Source: Eledone cirrhosa
Lineage: Eukaryota
Assembly (NCBI GenBank): GCA_964016885.1
Contig: OZ024750.1
Span: 17,980,001-18,044,000, forward strand
Direction: 5' to 3'
DNA length: 64,000 bases
The notes beneath the pieces were generated by a model. The model was given only the letters and a program-made list of their open reading frames with translations. It was not told where the DNA came from and made no database searches. This document shows positions 1,883-45,215 of this stretch, piece by piece. The position numbers were made by a program, and so were the translations under genes. How positions within the stretch are numbered: position 1 is the stretch's first letter; each line of letters starts with the position of its first letter.

Positions 1883-1960
1883 TTGTACACTCCAGGAGAG
1901 AGAAAATATAGCGAGGACTTTAACCCATCATCTCACGAATATATATGTTAATATTAAGTT

Positions 1961-4445
1961 AATACTAGAGGGTCAGACGCCATGCTTTCTAGCATAGTTA
2001 TGTCCCTTTATGATCTGAGTTCAAATCCCGCCGAGGTTAACTTTGCCTTTCATCCTTACGGGGTCGATAAAATAAAGTACCAGTAATGTACTGAGTAATT
2101 GCTGGCCTTGTGCCAAAAGTAGAAATAATTATGTTAATACTAGAGGGTCAGACGCCATGCTTTCTAGCATAGTTATGTCCCTTTATGATCTGAGTTCAAA
2201 TCCCGCCGAGGTTAACTTTGCCTTTCATCCTTACGAGGTCGATAAAATAAAGTACCAGTAATGTACTGAGTAATTGCTGGCCTTGTGCCAAAAGTAGAAA
2301 TAATTATGTTAATACTAGAGGGTCAGACGCCATGCTTTCTAGCATAGTTATGTCCCTTTATGATCTGAGTTCAAATCCCGCCGAGGTTAACTTTGCCTTT
2401 CATCCTTACGGGGTCGATAAAATAAAGTACCAGTAATGCACTGATTAATAATTGCTGGCCTTGTGCCAAAAGTAGAAATAATTATGTTAATACTAGAGGG
2501 TCAGACGCCATGCTTTCTAGCATAGTTATGTCCCTTTATGATCTGAGTTCAAATCCCGCCGAGGTTAACTTTGCCTTTCATCCTTACGGGGTCGATAAAA
2601 TAAAGTACCAGTAATGCACTGATTAATAATTGCTGGCCTTGTGCCAAAAGTAGAAATAATTATGTTAATACTAGAGGGTCAGACGCCATGCTTTCTAGCA
2701 TAGTTATGTCCCTTTATGATCTGAGTTCAAATCCCGCCGAGGTTAACTTTGCCTTTCATCCTTACGGGGTCGATAAAATAAAGTACCAGTAATGTACTGA
2801 GTAATTGCTGGCCTTGTGCCAAAAGTAGAAATAATTATGTTAATACTAGAGGGTCAGACGCCATGCTTTCTAGCATAGTTATGTCCCTTTATGATCTGAG
2901 TTCAAATCCCGCCGAGGTTAACTTTGCCTTTCATCCTTACGGGGTCGATAAAATAAAGTACCAGTAATGCACTGATTAATAATTGCTGGCCTTGTGCCAA
3001 AAGTAGAAATAATTATGTTAATACTAGAGGGTCAGACGCCATGCTTTCTAGCATAGTTATGTCCCTTTATGATCTGAGTTCAAATCCCGCCGAGGTTAAC
3101 TTTGCCTTTCATCCTTACGGGGTCGATAAAATAAAGTACCAGTAATGCACTGATTAATAATTGCTGGCCTTGTGCCAAAAGTAAAAATAATTATGTTAAT
3201 ACTAGAGGGTCAGACGCCATGCTTTCTAGCATAGTTATGTCCCTTTATGATCTGAGTTCAAATCCCGCCGAGGTTAACTTTGCCTTTCATCCTTACGGGG
3301 TCGATAAAATAAAGTACCAGTAATGCACTGGGATAATTGCTGGCCTTGTGCCAAAAGTAGAAACAATTATTATTAATGGTGTTATGTCCCTTTACGATCT
3401 GAGTTCAAATCCCGCCGAGGTTAACTTTGCCTTTCATCCTTACGGGGTCGATAAAATAAAGTACCAGTAATGCACTGAGTAATTGCTGGCCTTGTGCCAA
3501 AAAGTAGAAACAAATATGTTAATACTAGAGGGTCAGACGCCATGCTTTCTAGCATAGTTATGTCCCTTTATGATCTGAGTTCAAATCCCGCCGAGGTTAA
3601 CTTTGCCTTTCATCCTTACGGGGTCGATAAAATAAAGTACCAGTAATGCACTGATTAATAATTGCTGGCCTTGTGCCAAAAGTAAAAATAATTATGTTAA
3701 TACTAGAGGGTCAGACGCCATGCTTTCTAGCATAGTTATGTCCCTTTATGATCTGAGTTCAAATCCCGCCGAGGTTAACTTTGCCTTTCATCCTTACGGG
3801 GTCGATAAAATAAAGTACCAGTAATGTACTGAGTAATTGCTGGCCTTGTGCCAAAAAGTAGAAACAAATATGTTAATACTAGAGGGTCAGACGCCATGCT
3901 TTCTAGCATAGTTATGTCCCTTTATGATCTGAGTTCAAATCCCGCCGAGGTTAACTTTGCCTTTCATCCTTACGGGGTCGATAAAATAAAGTACCAGTAA
4001 TGCACTGGGATAATTGCTGGCCTTGTGCCAAAAGTAGAAACAATTATTATTAATGGTGTTATGTCCCTTTACGATCTGAGTTCAAATCCCGCCGAGGTTA
4101 ACTTTGCCTTTCATCCTTACGGGGTCGATAAAATAAAGTACCAGTAATGCACTGAGTAATTGCTGGCCTTGTGCCAAAAAGTAGAAACAATTATATATAT
4201 ATATAGTTCAAATCTCGTCGAGGTTAACTTTGCCTTTCATCCTTACGGGGTCGATAAAATAAAGTACCAGTAATGCACTGAGTAATTGCTGGCCTTGTGC
4301 CAAAAAGTAGAAACAATTATATATATATATAGTTCAAATCTCGTCGAGGTTAACTTTGCCTTTCATCCTTACGGGGTCGATAAAATAAAGTACCAGTAAT
4401 GTACTGAGTAATTGCTGGCCTTGTGCCAAAAAGTAGAAACAAATA
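1961..4445 (+). repeat. Tandem array of about 15 near-identical 5'-truncated SINE units (about 130-178 bp)
   Basis: Unit tagagggtcagacgcc...gccttgtgccaaaagtagaaataattatgttaatac repeats head-to-tail, with shorter variants at about 3375, 4055, 4205 and 4331. Confidence 0.95.
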
Positions 4446-4481
4446 TGTTAATACTATAGATGTTTATTAATTATTTGACAG

Positions 4482-12054: not shown

Positions 12055-14090
12055 TGAGGATCGCAACGTCTTCACAGACGATTGCCGTCTCGTATTGATT
12101 CTTTGTTATGATTCCATCTACATACATGGCTTCGTAGATGACTTTGTAGGCCAGTTGTAGATCTGCATGATTTACGACACAGGTGACAGAAGAGAGTTGT
12201 GCTTTCCACAGGACCGGTGGTGTCATCTTGTGGGACGCAATCTTTATGTACCACCATGTGTCTTTTTAGTCTTGAACTAGTTCTACACACTTTGTTGCAT
12301 ATCATGCACGTTATTTCGTCAGGTCTTTGTTGAGTGGTGTTGCAGATGGTTATCCCTTCAGGTAATTAACATAACCAGCCTTTGAGAGGAGTACACGCTG
12401 ACAGAAATTGCCTGTCCAACTACTGACGACTTCATCAAGACTTGTGAGCACAATCCATCCATAGCTGACACTTTAGTTGTTTATGTTCTAGACAACATTC
12501 CTCAAAAGTTTTGCAACTGCTCTTTATGCACTTCCTCCACTCAGCCCTATTTCGAGCCATCTCATCCCAGTTGTCTATATCAATTGCCTACTCTTTGAGG
12601 TTGTTCTTGATGTTGTCCCTGAGCCTCATTTTCGGTTTGTGTTGAGGTCTTTTTCCAAGATGGAGCTCACCATAAACAGTTACTTTGGGATCCTTCTTTT
12701 TTTCATGCATACGATATGTCCTGTCCAGCACATTTGAGAAGATGTTACTTGGGACTCAATGCTTTGACATTCTGCTTTGATAAGAACATGGATGTCAGGA
12801 GTTCTGTCTTGCCACATGATGTTGAATATGCGCCTTAAACATTTCTACTGAAAAACGCTCAAGCAATTTGGCGTGTTTGCGGAATAGCGTCCAGGTTTTG
12901 GCAGAGTATAAAAGAGCAGACAGAACACATGATCTATACACACACACCTTGGTATTGTTGGTAATGTTCCAATTTGCCAAAACTCTCTTTTCCAATTTTC
13001 CGAAGGCAACAGAGGCCTTCTGGATGCGCAGATGTATTCAGCATCCAAGGAGCCATCATTTGAGAGTGTGCTACCCAAGTAGGCAAATTTCTACTACTCC
13101 CAGTCTGGTTCCATTAACCATGATATTGGGTTCAGTATATGGTTCTCCAGGAGCAGGGGTAAACATTACTTTGGTCTTTTTAAGGCTGATTGCAAAACCA
13201 AATGCTGCACACGAGGATGAGAAATGGTCCATAATGTGTTGCATGTCAGCTTCTGTGTGTGCTAGGAAATCAGCGTCGTCAGCGTAAAGAAGGTCTCTGA
13301 TCAGAGCTTGAAAAGTTTTTGTCTTGGCATTAAACCTTCTTAAGTTGAAAACTTTTCGAGTGGTCCTGAACCGTAAAAGAATGCCTCTGTCACAATCATG
13401 GAAAGTATGTGTGAGCAAGGTAGCAAAGAAGATGGAGAAAAGCGTAGGAGCAGGAATATCACTTTACGTTACCCCATTGTCAATTGGGATTTCCCCAGAT
13501 AGTTTGCCATTGAGCTTTCATATTTCTGTGCAGCTGCTTTAGCATACGCACAAACTTGGGTGGACATCCCACTTTTCCAAGTATTATCCAGAGTGCATCT
13601 CTGTTAACTGTGTCAAAGGCCTTCGTTAGGTCGATAAGACTTGATATAGAAGGACACAATGCTCAATGCATTTTTCTTGTATTTGTCTTAAAGAGAAAAC
13701 ATGTCAACTGTTCCTCTTCCTCTTCTAAAACCACTCAGTGATTCTGGGATAGCTGTAGGACAGATATCCTCCTCCAGTCTGTTGAGCAAAAGTCTTGGAG
13801 AACCTTACCACAACTGCCAACAAAGTGATGTCACAGTAGTTTCCACATATCGATTTTTCACCTTTGCCTTTGTATAAGGATAACAGAATACTGTTGATCT
13901 AGTCTTGCGGAACTGAGGACCCATTCCAGCAATCAATGATGAAGTTGTTTATTGCTTCTGTTACATTCAACCGGCTTTCAACAGTTTGACTGGGATACCA
14001 TCTGGACCTGGTGCCTTGCCAGAGTTAACCTACTTGATTGCCAGCTTTATTCCGTCAGCAGAGGGAAGTCGATCCATACGGTGGACTGTT
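12055..14090 (-). mobile_element. Decayed RTE-clade LINE (RT domain to zinc-finger C-terminus)
   Basis: Frameshifted pieces LTKAFDTVNR, LLYADDADFLAHTEADMQHIMDHFSSSCAAFGFAISLKKTKVM, LLYSAKTWT and two C2H2 fingers at 12072-12305. Confidence 0.9.
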
Positions 14091-14492
14091 TCACTTACAT
14101 ACATGCATACATGGTGGCTGCCAACTCGTTTTCGAGTACGGCCACTACTTTATATCCATGTAGGAGAACCCCTACTGATGTGCTAAACGAGTGTGACTTT
14201 TTAGTCCAGCCAGCGACTTGAAAACTCTGGTACAAACACTACACTTGTGACAATTATTGACACATAGTGCTAGGCCCTTGGTACCATACATACATACATA
14301 CATACATACATACATACATACATACATACATACATACATACATACATACATACATACATACATACATACATTTATATGATAAATAATAGTTGAGAATATT
14401 TGTTAAAATAACACTGAAGAGTTGCCATCGAGTAATCAAACCTACAATATCTTGAATACTGTTGATTTTTCTGTTTATATATTATTTCACAG

Positions 14493-19022: not shown

Positions 19023-19079
19023 GAAGAAAGTCTCCAAGTTAGTGAACGTGCCATTCAGGGTCCCGCCGACACCGACATG
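19023..19079 (+). CDS. Micro-exon 8 (57 nt): EESLQVSERAIQGPADTDM
   Basis: ttttctgtttatgtaatatttcacAG ... GTaagt. Confidence 0.9.
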
Positions 19080-20897: not shown

Positions 20898-20944
20898 TGT
20901 TACTTTAATAATAATGTATTGTCTATTTATGTATTATTTCATAG

Positions 20945-22084
20945 GAAGAAAGTGCTCCCGGCATTCCTGGCGCAGCCGGCGCTGATGGTGTCCCCGGTGC
21001 ACCTGGTGCTCCCAGCGCTGATGGTGTTTCCGGTGCACCTGGTGCTCCCAGCGCTGATGGTGTCCCCGGTGCACCTGGTGCTCCCAGCGCTGATGGTCTT
21101 CCCGGTGCACCTGGTGCTCCCAGCGCTGATGGTGTCCCCGGTGCACCTGGTGCTCTCAGCGCTGATGGTGTCCCCGGTGCACCTGGTGCTCCCAGCGCTG
21201 ATGGTGTCCCCGGTGCACCTGGTGCTCCCAGCGCTGATGGTTTTCCCGGTGCACCTGGTGCTCCCAGCGCTGATGGTGTCCCCGGTGCACCCGGTGCTCC
21301 CAGCGCTGATGGTGTCCCCGGTGCACCTGGTGCTCCCAGCGCTGATGGTGTCCCCGGTGCACCCGGTGCTCCCAGCGCTGATGGCGTTCCCGGTGCACCC
21401 GGTGCTCCCAGCGCTGATGGTGTTCCCGGTGCACCCGGTGCTCCCAGCGCTGATGGTGTTCCCGGTGCACCTGGTGCTCCCAGCGCTGATGGTGTTCCCG
21501 GTGCACCCGGTGCTCCCAGCGCAGATGGTGTTCCCGGTGCACCTGTTGCTCCTGGTGCACTTGGTGCTCCCGGCTTTCGCGGTTCTTCCGGCGATCTCGG
21601 CGTTAGCAGAGTTCATGGTGCACTCGGGGCTCCTGGTGCACCTGGCGCTCCCGGCGCTCCCGGAGGTCCCAGCGTTCCTGGCGCTCTCGGCGCTCCCGGC
21701 GTTCCTGGCGCTCCCGGCGTTCCTGGCGCTCCCGGCGTTCCTGGCGCTCCCGGCGTTCCTGGCGCTCCCGGCGGTCCCAGTGTTCCTGGCGCTCCCGGCT
21801 ATCCCGACGCTGCTGGCGCTCTCGGCGCTCCCGGCGTTCTTGGTGCTCCTGGCGGTCCCAGCGTTCCTGGCGCTCCCGACGCTGCTGGCGCTCTCGGCGC
21901 TCCCGGCGTTCCTGGCGGTCCCAGCTATCCCGGCGCTCCCGGCTATCCCGGCGCTCCCGGCGCTCCCAGCATTCCCGGCGCTCCCAGCGTTCCTGGCGCT
22001 CCCGGCGCTCCTGGCGTTCCTGGCGCTCCCAGCCTTCCTGGCGCTCCCGGCGCTCCCAGCGACCAGCCCACTGACGTCGGAAAG
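20945..22084 (+). CDS. Exon 9 (1140 nt, 380 aa, phase 0): collagen-like Gly-X-Pro repeat, EESAPGIPGAAGAD(GVPGAPGAPSAD)n...GAPGAPSDQPTDVGK
   Basis: tatgtattatttcatAG at 20944 and GTaattatc at 22085. The length is a multiple of 3 with no stop seen. About 15 copies of a 36-nt unit are followed by 9-nt units. This frame is absent from the ORF track because it lacks a start codon. Confidence 0.9.
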
Positions 22085-22380
22085 GTAATTATCATCATCT
22101 ATTCCTGTTACCATTTTACTCTTTCACATTTAGCTTGCAACCCTAACCTTCCTATATTAATTACTATTTCAACGTTACGACCCTTTATGGTCTGAGTTCA
22201 AATCCCGCCGAGGCTAACTTTGCCTCTCATGCTTACGGGGGTCGATAAAATAAAGTACCAGTAATATACTGGGATAATTGCTGGCCTTGTGCCAAAAGTA
22301 GAAACAATTATTTACTATTTCAAGATTCTTTTGTCACATCCTCTTAATGAAATGACGACAGTGGAGTGTTATTGCACCCT

Positions 22381-23020
22381 TCATAAGTAGTGATGGGTCA
22401 TGAGAATGGTGTGGTCACTTTCATAAGTAGTGATGGGTCATGAGAATGGTGTTGTCACTTTCATAAGTAGTAATGGGTCATGAGAATGGTGTGGTCACTT
22501 TCATAAGTAGTGATGGGTCATGAGAATGGTGTGGTCACTTTCATAAGTAGTAATGGGTCATAAGAATGGTGTGGTCACTTTCATAAGTAGTAATGGGTCA
22601 TGAGAATGGTGTGGTCACTTTCATAAGTAGTGATGGGTCATGAGAATGGAGTGGTCACTTTCATAAGTAGTAATGGGTCATGAGAATGGTGTGGTCACTT
22701 TCATAAGTAGTGATGGGTCATGAGAATGGAGTGGTCACTTTCATAAGTAGTAATGGGTCATGAGAATGGTGTGGTCACTTTCATAAGTAGTAATGGGTCA
22801 TGAGAATGGTGTGGTCACTTTCATAAGTAGTGATGGGTCATGAGAATGGAGTGGTCACTTTCATAAGTAGTGATGGGTCATGAGAATGGTGTGGTCACTT
22901 TCATAAGTAGTGATGGGTCATGAGAATGGTGTGATCACTTTCATAAGTAGTAATGGGTCATGAGAATGGTGTGGTCACTTTCATAAGTAGTAATGGGTCA
23001 TGAGAATGGTGTGGTCACTT
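22381..23020. repeat. 40-bp minisatellite, 16 copies
   Basis: tcataagtagt(g/a)atgggtcatgagaatggtgtggtcactt repeated without spacers. Confidence 0.97.
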
Positions 23021-23644: not shown

Positions 23645-23677
23645 GGAAAAATGTTCCAAATTCCTGACGCCGGCATG
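23645..23677 (+). CDS. Micro-exon 10 (33 nt): GKMFQIPDAGM
   Basis: ctatagaattttctgttaatgtattatttcacAG ... GTattatc. Confidence 0.8.
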
Positions 23678-25044: not shown

Positions 25045-25098
25045 CAAGCAAGAGGTTCCAGGGATCAACTCACCGATCAACCCAGTGATGCCGACATG
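25045..25098 (+). CDS. Micro-exon 11 (54 nt): QARGSRDQLTDQPSDADM
   Basis: atatttcacAG ... GTaattattatc. Confidence 0.85.
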
Positions 25099-42887: not shown

Positions 42888-42931
42888 CGAGAAAAAGGCA
42901 GAACTAGAAGACGTACTACCGATTTCGGAAG
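42888..42931 (+). CDS. Cassette 21: 44-nt exon REKGRTRRRTTDFG(+AG), one base short of frame
   Basis: Intact AG/GT but ends GGAAG|gt, whereas exon 9 ends GGAAAG|gt; real frameshift or sequencing indel. Confidence 0.55.
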
Positions 42932-44370: not shown

Positions 44371-44401
<31 letters not shown>

Positions 44402-44403
<2 letters not shown>

Positions 44404-45215
44404 CCGGGGCACCCAAATAAAAAACGCCCCCCCCCCCCATAAAAAAACGGGGCACCCAAATAAAAAACGGACCCCCCCCCCAAAAAAAACGGGGCACCCA
44501 AATAAAAAACGGGGCACGCGAATAAAAAACGGAGCACCCCTAATAAAAAACGCCCCCCCCCATAAAAAAACGGGGGCACCCAAATAAAAAACGGACCCCT
44601 CCCCCAAAAAAACGGGGCACCCAAATAAAAAACGGGGCACGCGAATAAAAAACGGAGCACCCTAATAAAAAACGCCCCCCCCCCATAAAAAAAACGGGGC
44701 ACCCAAATAAAAAACGGACCCCCCCCCAAAAAAAAACGGGGCACCCAAATAAAAAACGGGGCACGCGAATAAAAAACGGAGCACCCTAATAAAAAACGCC
44801 CCCCCCCATAAAAAAACGGGGCGCCCAAATAAAAAACGGACCCCCCCCCCCATAAAAAACGGGGCACCAAAATAAAAAAACGGGGCACCAAAATAAAAAA
44901 CGGACCCCACTCATAAAAAACCGGGGCACCCAAATAAAAAACGGACCCCCCCCATAAAAAAAACGGGGCACCCAAATAAAAAAACGGGGCACCCAAATAA
45001 AAAACCGGGGCGCCCAAATAAAAAACGGACCCCACCCCCATAAAAAAACGGGGCACCCAAATAAAAAACGGACCCCCCCCCCATAAAAAAACGGGGCACC
45101 CAAATAAAAAAACAGACCCCCCCCCATAAAAAAACAGGGCACCCAAATAAAAAACGGGACACCCAAATAAAAAACGGACCCCCCCCCCCATAAAAAAACG
45201 GGCACCAAATAAACA
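44402..45215. repeat. Homopolymer-rich about 20-bp minisatellite (aaaaaacggggcacccaaat / aaaaaacggacccccccccat)
   Basis: Alternating unit variants repeated about 40 times. Confidence 0.9.

Follow-up and report, generated by a model that had tools for sequence, protein, structure and literature searches.

A Gly-X-Pro coding minisatellite, probably grown in place, in the micro-exon array of an octopod C10orf67 gene

Introduction

Coding sequence for tripeptide repeats has arisen by tandem duplication of 9-nt units in the antifreeze glycoprotein genes of notothenioids and gadids, in the notothenioid case within an unrelated host gene, and the products are described as secreted proteins with a shown, selected function (PMC6410882). 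Human collagen-like proteins are defined in PMC13138384 by at least nine continuous Gly-X-Y triplets, with 9-10 repeats as the minimum, and all of them but WDR33 are described there as secreted or type II membrane proteins. The nuclear WDR33 carries 23 unbroken triplets in a lineage-restricted Gly-X-Y region whose function is reported as unexplained (PMC11331416; PMC13138384). The sawfly silk collagens SfC A-C, for which an independent origin has been suggested, lack hydroxyproline; their account gives 60-62 unbroken triplets, with Pro in 38-53% of X and 4-8% of Y positions, and a triple helix that has been shown (PMC3790195). Hydroxylation of collagen prolines is described as preceding secretion (PMC8968730), and hydroxyproline-free collagens as depending on Pro in X plus polar or charged residues (PMC8968730; PMC3790195). 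Many short exons with long introns between them are described for the schistosome micro-exon genes (MEGs; 10.1101/2023.06.21.545858), which encode secreted, schistosome-specific proteins.

The present analysis concerns a 1,140-nt exon coding for Gly-X-Pro repeats, referred to below as the expanded exon, that lies among micro-exons in a 64,000-nt stretch of the Eledone cirrhosa genome (the window; contig OZ024750.1 of assembly GCA_964016885.1, positions 17,980,001 to 18,044,000 of the forward strand). Positions are those of the window unless a contig position is stated. As in the antifreeze glycoprotein genes, a 9-nt repeat codes for tripeptides, but in this gene the repeat remains part of the host protein, with a putative role. 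WDR33, likened to the exon by features and not by homology, likewise has a Gly-X-Y region in a non-secreted protein, whereas unbroken triplets in the exon number at most 11. Compared with SfC A-C the placement of Pro is opposite and breaks are frequent. The array has an MEG-type layout, in that coding lies largely in short symmetric exons; the likeness is one of analogy only, as the array sits inside a conserved coiled-coil gene whose model has no hydrophobic leader.

The best reading of the sequence appears to be that of a lineage-specific coding minisatellite in a fast-evolving linker. Although the mechanism, in which amplification of a 9-nt repeat yields tripeptide repeats, is already known from the antifreeze glycoproteins, this locus is an unusually legible case of de novo collagen-like sequence: the cassette ends and introns survive round the repeat, and dozens of unexpanded sisters lie alongside. 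It is also a warning that where a cephalopod gene model matches Pfam Collagen, the sequence behind the match may be a coding minisatellite of recent origin.

Results and discussion

Structure of the expanded exon

The expanded exon (20945-22084, forward strand; phase 0/0, 380 codons) is free of stops in frame 0; it is likewise open in forward frame 1 and in one frame of the minus strand. The acceptor reads ..tttcatag/GAA and the donor AAG/gtaatt. Scored on intron letters alone, the acceptor reaches 25.2 (array median 29.1) and the donor 14.7 (array median 13.9); the best donor inside the exon scores -4.9, and no internal site scores above 0. As had been proposed before this analysis, the splice flanks are like those of the neighbouring exons, the acceptor flank (20915-20944) having 24 of 30 nt in common with five sister cassettes. 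The exon is predicted to be included in the mRNA, in the frame that the phase of its fellow exons implies; inclusion may be optional, because skipping an exon of phase 0/0 would leave the frame unchanged.

The approximately 1.1 kb of 36-nt and 9-nt repeats in the original prediction is seen as an ordered pair of blocks. A 36-nt minisatellite (20987-21526; 15 x 36 nt, GVPGAPGAPSAD), in which Gly-X-Y runs are of 3 triplets only, is followed by an older-looking, 9-nt-based repeat (21527-22057) that codes for GAP, GVP, GAL and GGP-SVP, with Gly-first runs of 1-11 triplets. GYP, named earlier as a main triplet of the later half, is rare, with two occurrences. Tandem Repeats Finder (TRF) reports a period of 36 nt at 20979-21552 (15.9 copies, 95% matches) and periods of 18, 27, 45 and 63 nt at 21607-22061. 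The 15 whole 36-nt units have a mean identity of 96.7% to their consensus and differ by four amino-acid changes, each in one unit. The longest Gly-X-Y run (21680-21778; 11 triplets, (GXY)10-G without GG) is the only one of at least nine continuous triplets, all others being of six or fewer. The exon closes with what looks like a retained micro-exon 3' end, SDQPTDVGK (22058-22084).

A single 9-nt pattern runs throughout, with G at position 2 in 121 of 126 repeats and a register that is continuous across all 126 triplets. The first residue is Gly in 96 and Ser in 24 of these; 48 of the 62 second-half triplets are Gly-first, and Ser stands at every fourth triplet of the first half. The earlier statement that Ser replaces Gly at these places thus holds for the spacing but has no support for the direction of change. 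The preceding codon ends in C for all 23 internal Ser-first triplets, which is compatible with a CpG transition (CCC-GGC to CCC-AGC) and also with descent from the Pro-Ser core of the family, neither direction being favoured. The Gly-X-Pro pattern itself is what any in-frame GGN-GCN-CCN repeat yields.

The exon and its flanks were compared with contigs from three sequencing runs, which represent one sample and may be the assembly's own source; the runs are called DNA-like because reads continue through the intron without joints. These contigs cover 19-24 of 30 bins of the exon, with no differing letters among those listed, and read depth roughly tracks the copy number in the assembly (5.3x vs 5.6 copies; worst, 4.3x vs 2.3). 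A fourth run gave no match to the exon or its flanks. Since the contigs agree where they cover the exon and depth roughly follows copy number, the repeat array is unlikely to be an assembly artefact. A second minisatellite (22380-23020; 40-nt period, 16 copies, 96% matches) lies in the same cassette, 300 nt 3' of the expanded exon.

Host gene

The host gene, which the original prediction had missed, is C10orf67/DUF4709: by sequence comparison, the micro-exon array is the middle of the octopod orthologue, present as a single copy (one match in the genome). For the host-gene search, 100 kb were added on each side of the window. Micro-exons begin about 39 kb upstream of the window and continue for about 24 kb beyond its end, and at both ends the array gives way to ordinary coiled-coil-like exons. 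The whole gene model (contig 17925295 to 18078734, forward strand) reaches beyond the window on both sides and comprises 85 exons (10 + 69 + 6) that code for 2,032 aa without internal stops; the expanded exon would supply residues 901-1280 if every intact cassette is included.

A search of 1.84 billion representatives with one 3' exon gave three relatives; the two that are named come from Argonauta hians and Octopus bimaculoides. The profile built on the 3' exons returned 113 proteins, about 110 of them mostly annotated as C10orf67/DUF4709, in a set of heavily redundant isoforms from bivalves, echinoderms and others. The same profile found O. sinensis LOC118762221 (E 4e-59), which carries PF15821 and gives 12 collinear exon matches flanking the array, 11 of them with E < 0.1. 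A 25-aa exon matches positions 91-110 of DUF4709 as its only family, below the 27-bit cut-off (E 0.021, 15.6 bits), and LOC118762221 matches this exon at 88%. The C-terminal coiled-coil motif is 72-74% identical to the Argonauta and O. bimaculoides proteins and 55-59% identical (E about 2e-5) to C10orf67-like proteins of Mytilus and sea urchin. O. sinensis LOC118762221 and O. bimaculoides XP_052834497.1 are like the Eledone gene in the C-terminal coiled-coil motif and the collinear exons, and probably in the N-terminal DUF4709 region. Both records bear misleading automatic names.

Other searches were less informative. Whole-genome family searches with PF15821 and PF15852 gave no match, but the controls likewise gave none. 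A Pfam scan of six single flanking exons returned 0/6, a 40-aa read-through of the 3' exon gave no match in a word-based search, and an ESM Atlas search with residues 205-365 of XP_052834497.1 found coiled-coil look-alikes only. DUF4724 (PF15852) is associated with C10orf67 proteins at the C-terminus; it has no match in P0122 or XP_052834497.1 and is not listed for any of the 113 profile matches.

Judged by hydropathy only, the 2,032-aa model has no signal peptide or membrane segment, the highest 19-residue mean being 1.09, and the N-termini of 2 of 112 homologues reach 2.0. As an AG lies just before the ATG of the first modelled exon, a signal peptide might be encoded by an upstream exon that the model misses; in a homologue-profile search for an upstream N-terminal exon, the known exon alone scored. 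A stand-alone secreted micro-exon gene was also considered and is ruled out by the flanking coiled-coil exons of a conserved gene.

The function of the C10orf67 family is unsettled. Knock-down in NIH-3T3 cells is reported to have a hypoxia/apoptosis effect (10.1101/743955), an interaction with NOD2 is reported from two-hybrid and BRET assays and not from co-IP (PMC5094585), and the gene figures in a testis co-expression row (PMC10298883). Among the literature matches listed, no title or abstract start dealt with cephalopod C10orf67 or with the expanded exon.

Origin of the expanded exon

The sequence comparisons point to birth in place, from a micro-exon cassette by tandem repeat expansion, as the most likely origin. 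The last 27 nt of the exon match the micro-exon ending in DQPSDADM (25045-25098; 54 nt, among the closest sister cassettes) at 18 of 27 positions, a likeness that had been noted earlier, and match the exon at contig position 17978871, just upstream of the window, at 19 of 27; none of 5,000 shuffles reaches 19. The downstream intron (22085-22375), split by an inserted interspersed repeat at about 22173-22309, is homologous to those of sister cassettes: for 13 and 14 of 72 cassettes, respectively, its two pieces align with a higher score than any of 100 shuffles, and the best of 79 control stretches outside the gene scores 36 vs 65 for the intron pieces. The proposed likeness of the exon start to an upstream micro-exon fared less well. 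The first 9 nt equal those of the upstream neighbour (19023-19079; 57 nt, EESLQVSERAIQGPADTDM), but even the best match of 72 is weak (P = 0.06 over the first 15 nt and P = 0.024 over the first 21 nt). Identity between the expanded cassette and its nearest sisters is about 70%, and the cassette tree gives it no supported sister, placing it in an unresolved group.

Exact-pattern matches of the two repeat halves in the genome fall in the expanded exon without exception (14/14 and 5/5). The 115 records of C10orf67/DUF4709 homologues, O. sinensis included, differ from the gene described here in having no Gly-X-Y segment, as no Gly-X-Y run in them is longer than 2; the entries for O. sinensis and O. 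bimaculoides, being gene models, could have missed an exon of this kind. With the 3' end and introns homologous to sisters and the repeats unique in the genome, the predicted expansion within a micro-exon-type cassette is upheld. The further proposal that the interior of a 57-nt-type micro-exon seeded the repeat unit is not: the match of the unit to micro-exon interiors is no better than to shuffles (P = 0.155).

The contrast between about 70% identity to sisters and 96.7% among units suggests an old cassette in which the 36-nt block was recently homogenised or expanded, and the closer likeness of the 36-nt units suggests that the 9-nt units came first and the 36-nt block later. The proposed course would start from an ordinary micro-exon cassette in octopod C10orf67, inside which 9-nt tandem amplification and then 36-nt amplification would have taken place. 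Inside the cell, the product would likely serve as a spacer, extended, disordered or in polyproline-II form, that separates the N-terminal from the C-terminal coiled-coil region.

Collagen-like properties and alternative explanations

The expanded exon scores 132 bits against Pfam Collagen, for which the cut-off is 27.2. Pro occupies Y in 82 of the 96 Gly-first triplets and X in 0 of 96, with no GPP, and 84 of the 96 have Ala or Val in X. The 380-aa segment holds 3 Lys or Arg, of which 1 is Lys, and 0 Cys. A single-sequence AlphaFold2 model of the exon has a mean pLDDT of 37, too low to be informative. Prolyl 4-hydroxylation of collagen occurs in the secretory path. Because the exon has one qualifying run, never Pro in X and few charges, and the model lacks a hydrophobic leader, a stable triple helix is unlikely, and the doubt that the original prediction had raised about a true collagen is borne out. 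Elastin-like proteins have VPGVG-type repeats and Lys cross-link domains. The exon codes for 23 VPG but 0 VPGVG and 0 PGVG; with a single Lys, no Cys and neither signal peptide nor membrane segment in the model, the elastin-like extracellular role suggested earlier is unsupported. An intracellular location, a spacer role between the coiled-coil regions and the splicing of the exon are all proposed from sequence.

Taken together, the exon is probably an in-frame C10orf67 exon, most likely grown from a micro-exon cassette by 9-nt and then 36-nt amplification, and its product is likely an extended, disordered or polyproline-II intracellular spacer and not a triple helix. It is possible, if distinctly less probable, that the cassette is a neutral passenger, grown by slippage like the nearby non-coding minisatellites, with the long exon mostly skipped or tolerated and without a role. 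Among 47 repeat-variant steps, 13 are synonymous and 34 non-synonymous, with no synonymous excess (P = 0.84), and the variant types among the 36-nt units are four of each; no selection on the codons of the repeat was detected in these steps. In three groups of paralogous micro-exons the pooled dN/dS is 0.71, 1.16 and 2.08, and a fourth shows non-synonymous differences only; the array contains eight dead or doubtful cassettes, four with a broken AG or GT, one of 44 nt and three with an acceptor only. Passive growth is also consistent with the 40-nt x 16 minisatellite in the intron and with a GC-rich 9-nt unit that is open by itself, as shown by the two other open frames. Against it stand the 9-nt register, intact over 126 triplets, and splice sites near the array median without a cryptic internal site, despite about 30% divergence from the nearest sisters.

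Capture, meaning that a micro-exon took in part of a collagen gene or a mobile minisatellite, is very improbable. It could account for the repeat unit resembling micro-exon interiors no better than shuffles do, and a protein search with the exon did return 196 matches, mostly to collagen-domain proteins; these are only 28-46% identical, which is composition level, and none of the best 120 of the 196 bears the name of a cephalopod protein. A DNA search with the exon matched only the exon itself plus one unrelated simple GCT/GGC run. Both unit patterns are confined to the expanded exon, and one 9-nt pattern spans its whole length. A newborn functional collagen domain is unlikely, though somewhat less so: three chains, registered by the host coiled coils, would wind the second half into an interrupted triple helix. 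The Pfam score, the mostly Gly-first second half, the one (GXY)10-G run that reaches the minimum given in PMC13138384 and the independent earlier rise of a hydroxyproline-free animal collagen reported in PMC3790195 are in its favour, as is a sparing of Gly positions (6 changes, against 13 and 14 at X or Y; P = 0.043, uncorrected) that gives a weak hint that Gly positions may be kept. It is opposed by the confinement of Pro to Y, the scarce charges and the interruption of Gly-X-Y at every fourth triplet in the most amplified unit. The lack of a signal peptide or membrane segment in the model, and the rarity of hydrophobic N-termini among homologues, also oppose it, given that human collagen-like proteins, all but one, are described as secreted or type II membrane proteins (PMC13138384). 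A fuller form of the idea, a collagen domain at its birth inside the cell, with the exon spliced in, the second half forming a hydroxyproline-free interrupted helix of three chains registered by the host coiled coils and the 12-residue repeat serving as a polyproline-II spring, is a shade less probable again. If true, it would offer a datable, exon-skippable experiment in the rise of Gly-X-Y within a non-collagen gene. The intracellular spacer remains the preferred reading.

The micro-exon array and the linker

The array within the window (4482-61690, forward strand) has 27 intact micro-exons of 33-57 nt plus the expanded exon, whose downstream neighbour is a 33-nt exon (23645-23677, forward strand; GKMFQIPDAGM). 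Counted over its whole length, the array comprises the expanded exon and 68 intact phase-0 micro-exons of 30-75 nt. A count of 69/70 from the frame-filtered exon list is biased, and a frame-blind scan on intron letters alone was relied on instead. It gave 52 cassettes above the best control score, 47 of them with a length divisible by 3, and for 3 of the remaining 5 an in-frame donor lies nearer; the three frames contain stops in 0, 14 and 50 of the 52, duplicated cassettes in these counts not being independent. Overall, the array has the look of coding sequence under loose constraint.

The exon-end motif of the micro-exons recurs mid-protein in both Octopus orthologues (P = 0.03; 0/300 shuffles) and is absent from three non-cephalopod control proteins. 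Measured from anchor to anchor, the linker is up to 1,855 aa in Eledone vs 749 in O. sinensis, and its median is 305 aa in non-cephalopod records (100 of 111 with both anchors found). In this octopod the conserved gene has extended its linker, through the birth and death of exons, to about 70 micro-exons spread over 127 kb; a linker up to six times the usual length makes its role testable by species comparison. The Octopus orthologues carry linker repeats of their own, which differ from those of Eledone; in O. bimaculoides these are of a 20-aa, SPTPTPKPSKDEPTEFETQR type, and isoform models of that species differ by one 20-aa unit.

Several parts of the array have been amplified as larger cassettes. 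Upstream of the window (contig 17949773-17963183), eleven near-identical 57-nt exons of the RKLAPGTKGSDEDSSVSKQ type occur in tandem cassettes of ~1.33 kb whose neighbours are 94-99.5% identical. The introns of these cassettes hold a fragment matching the first ~70 residues of an older O. bimaculoides model (E 1e-8 to 1e-12), and a further match to the same residues lies at 270-494 of the window; the shared fragment is likely a mobile-element piece wrongly included in that model. At window-relative positions 69913-81984, nine 57-nt exons of the KRIGRGARYPGEDLTDAEM type are found, most of them in ~1.4-kb cassettes that are 87-98% identical, with a pooled dN/dS of about 2; positive selection on these exons is possible, judging from the substitutions. 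A block of 42-45-nt exons at 27079-51049 forms a supported clade in the cassette tree and includes dead copies at 42888 (44 nt), 45866 (acceptor TG) and 49420 (acceptor AC and a stop). Three cassettes, at window 7344, contig 17964191 and window-relative 79575, have a good acceptor but no matching donor, and the one at contig 17964191 enters a long (CTT)n tract after about 60 nt.

Other repeats in the window comprise tandem arrays of a common interspersed repeat at 1953-4446 (periods 126-178 nt) and a C/A-rich 20/43-nt repeat at 44396-45213. By eye only, an intronic stretch on the minus strand at 12500-14100 has the look of a LINE reverse-transcriptase remnant.
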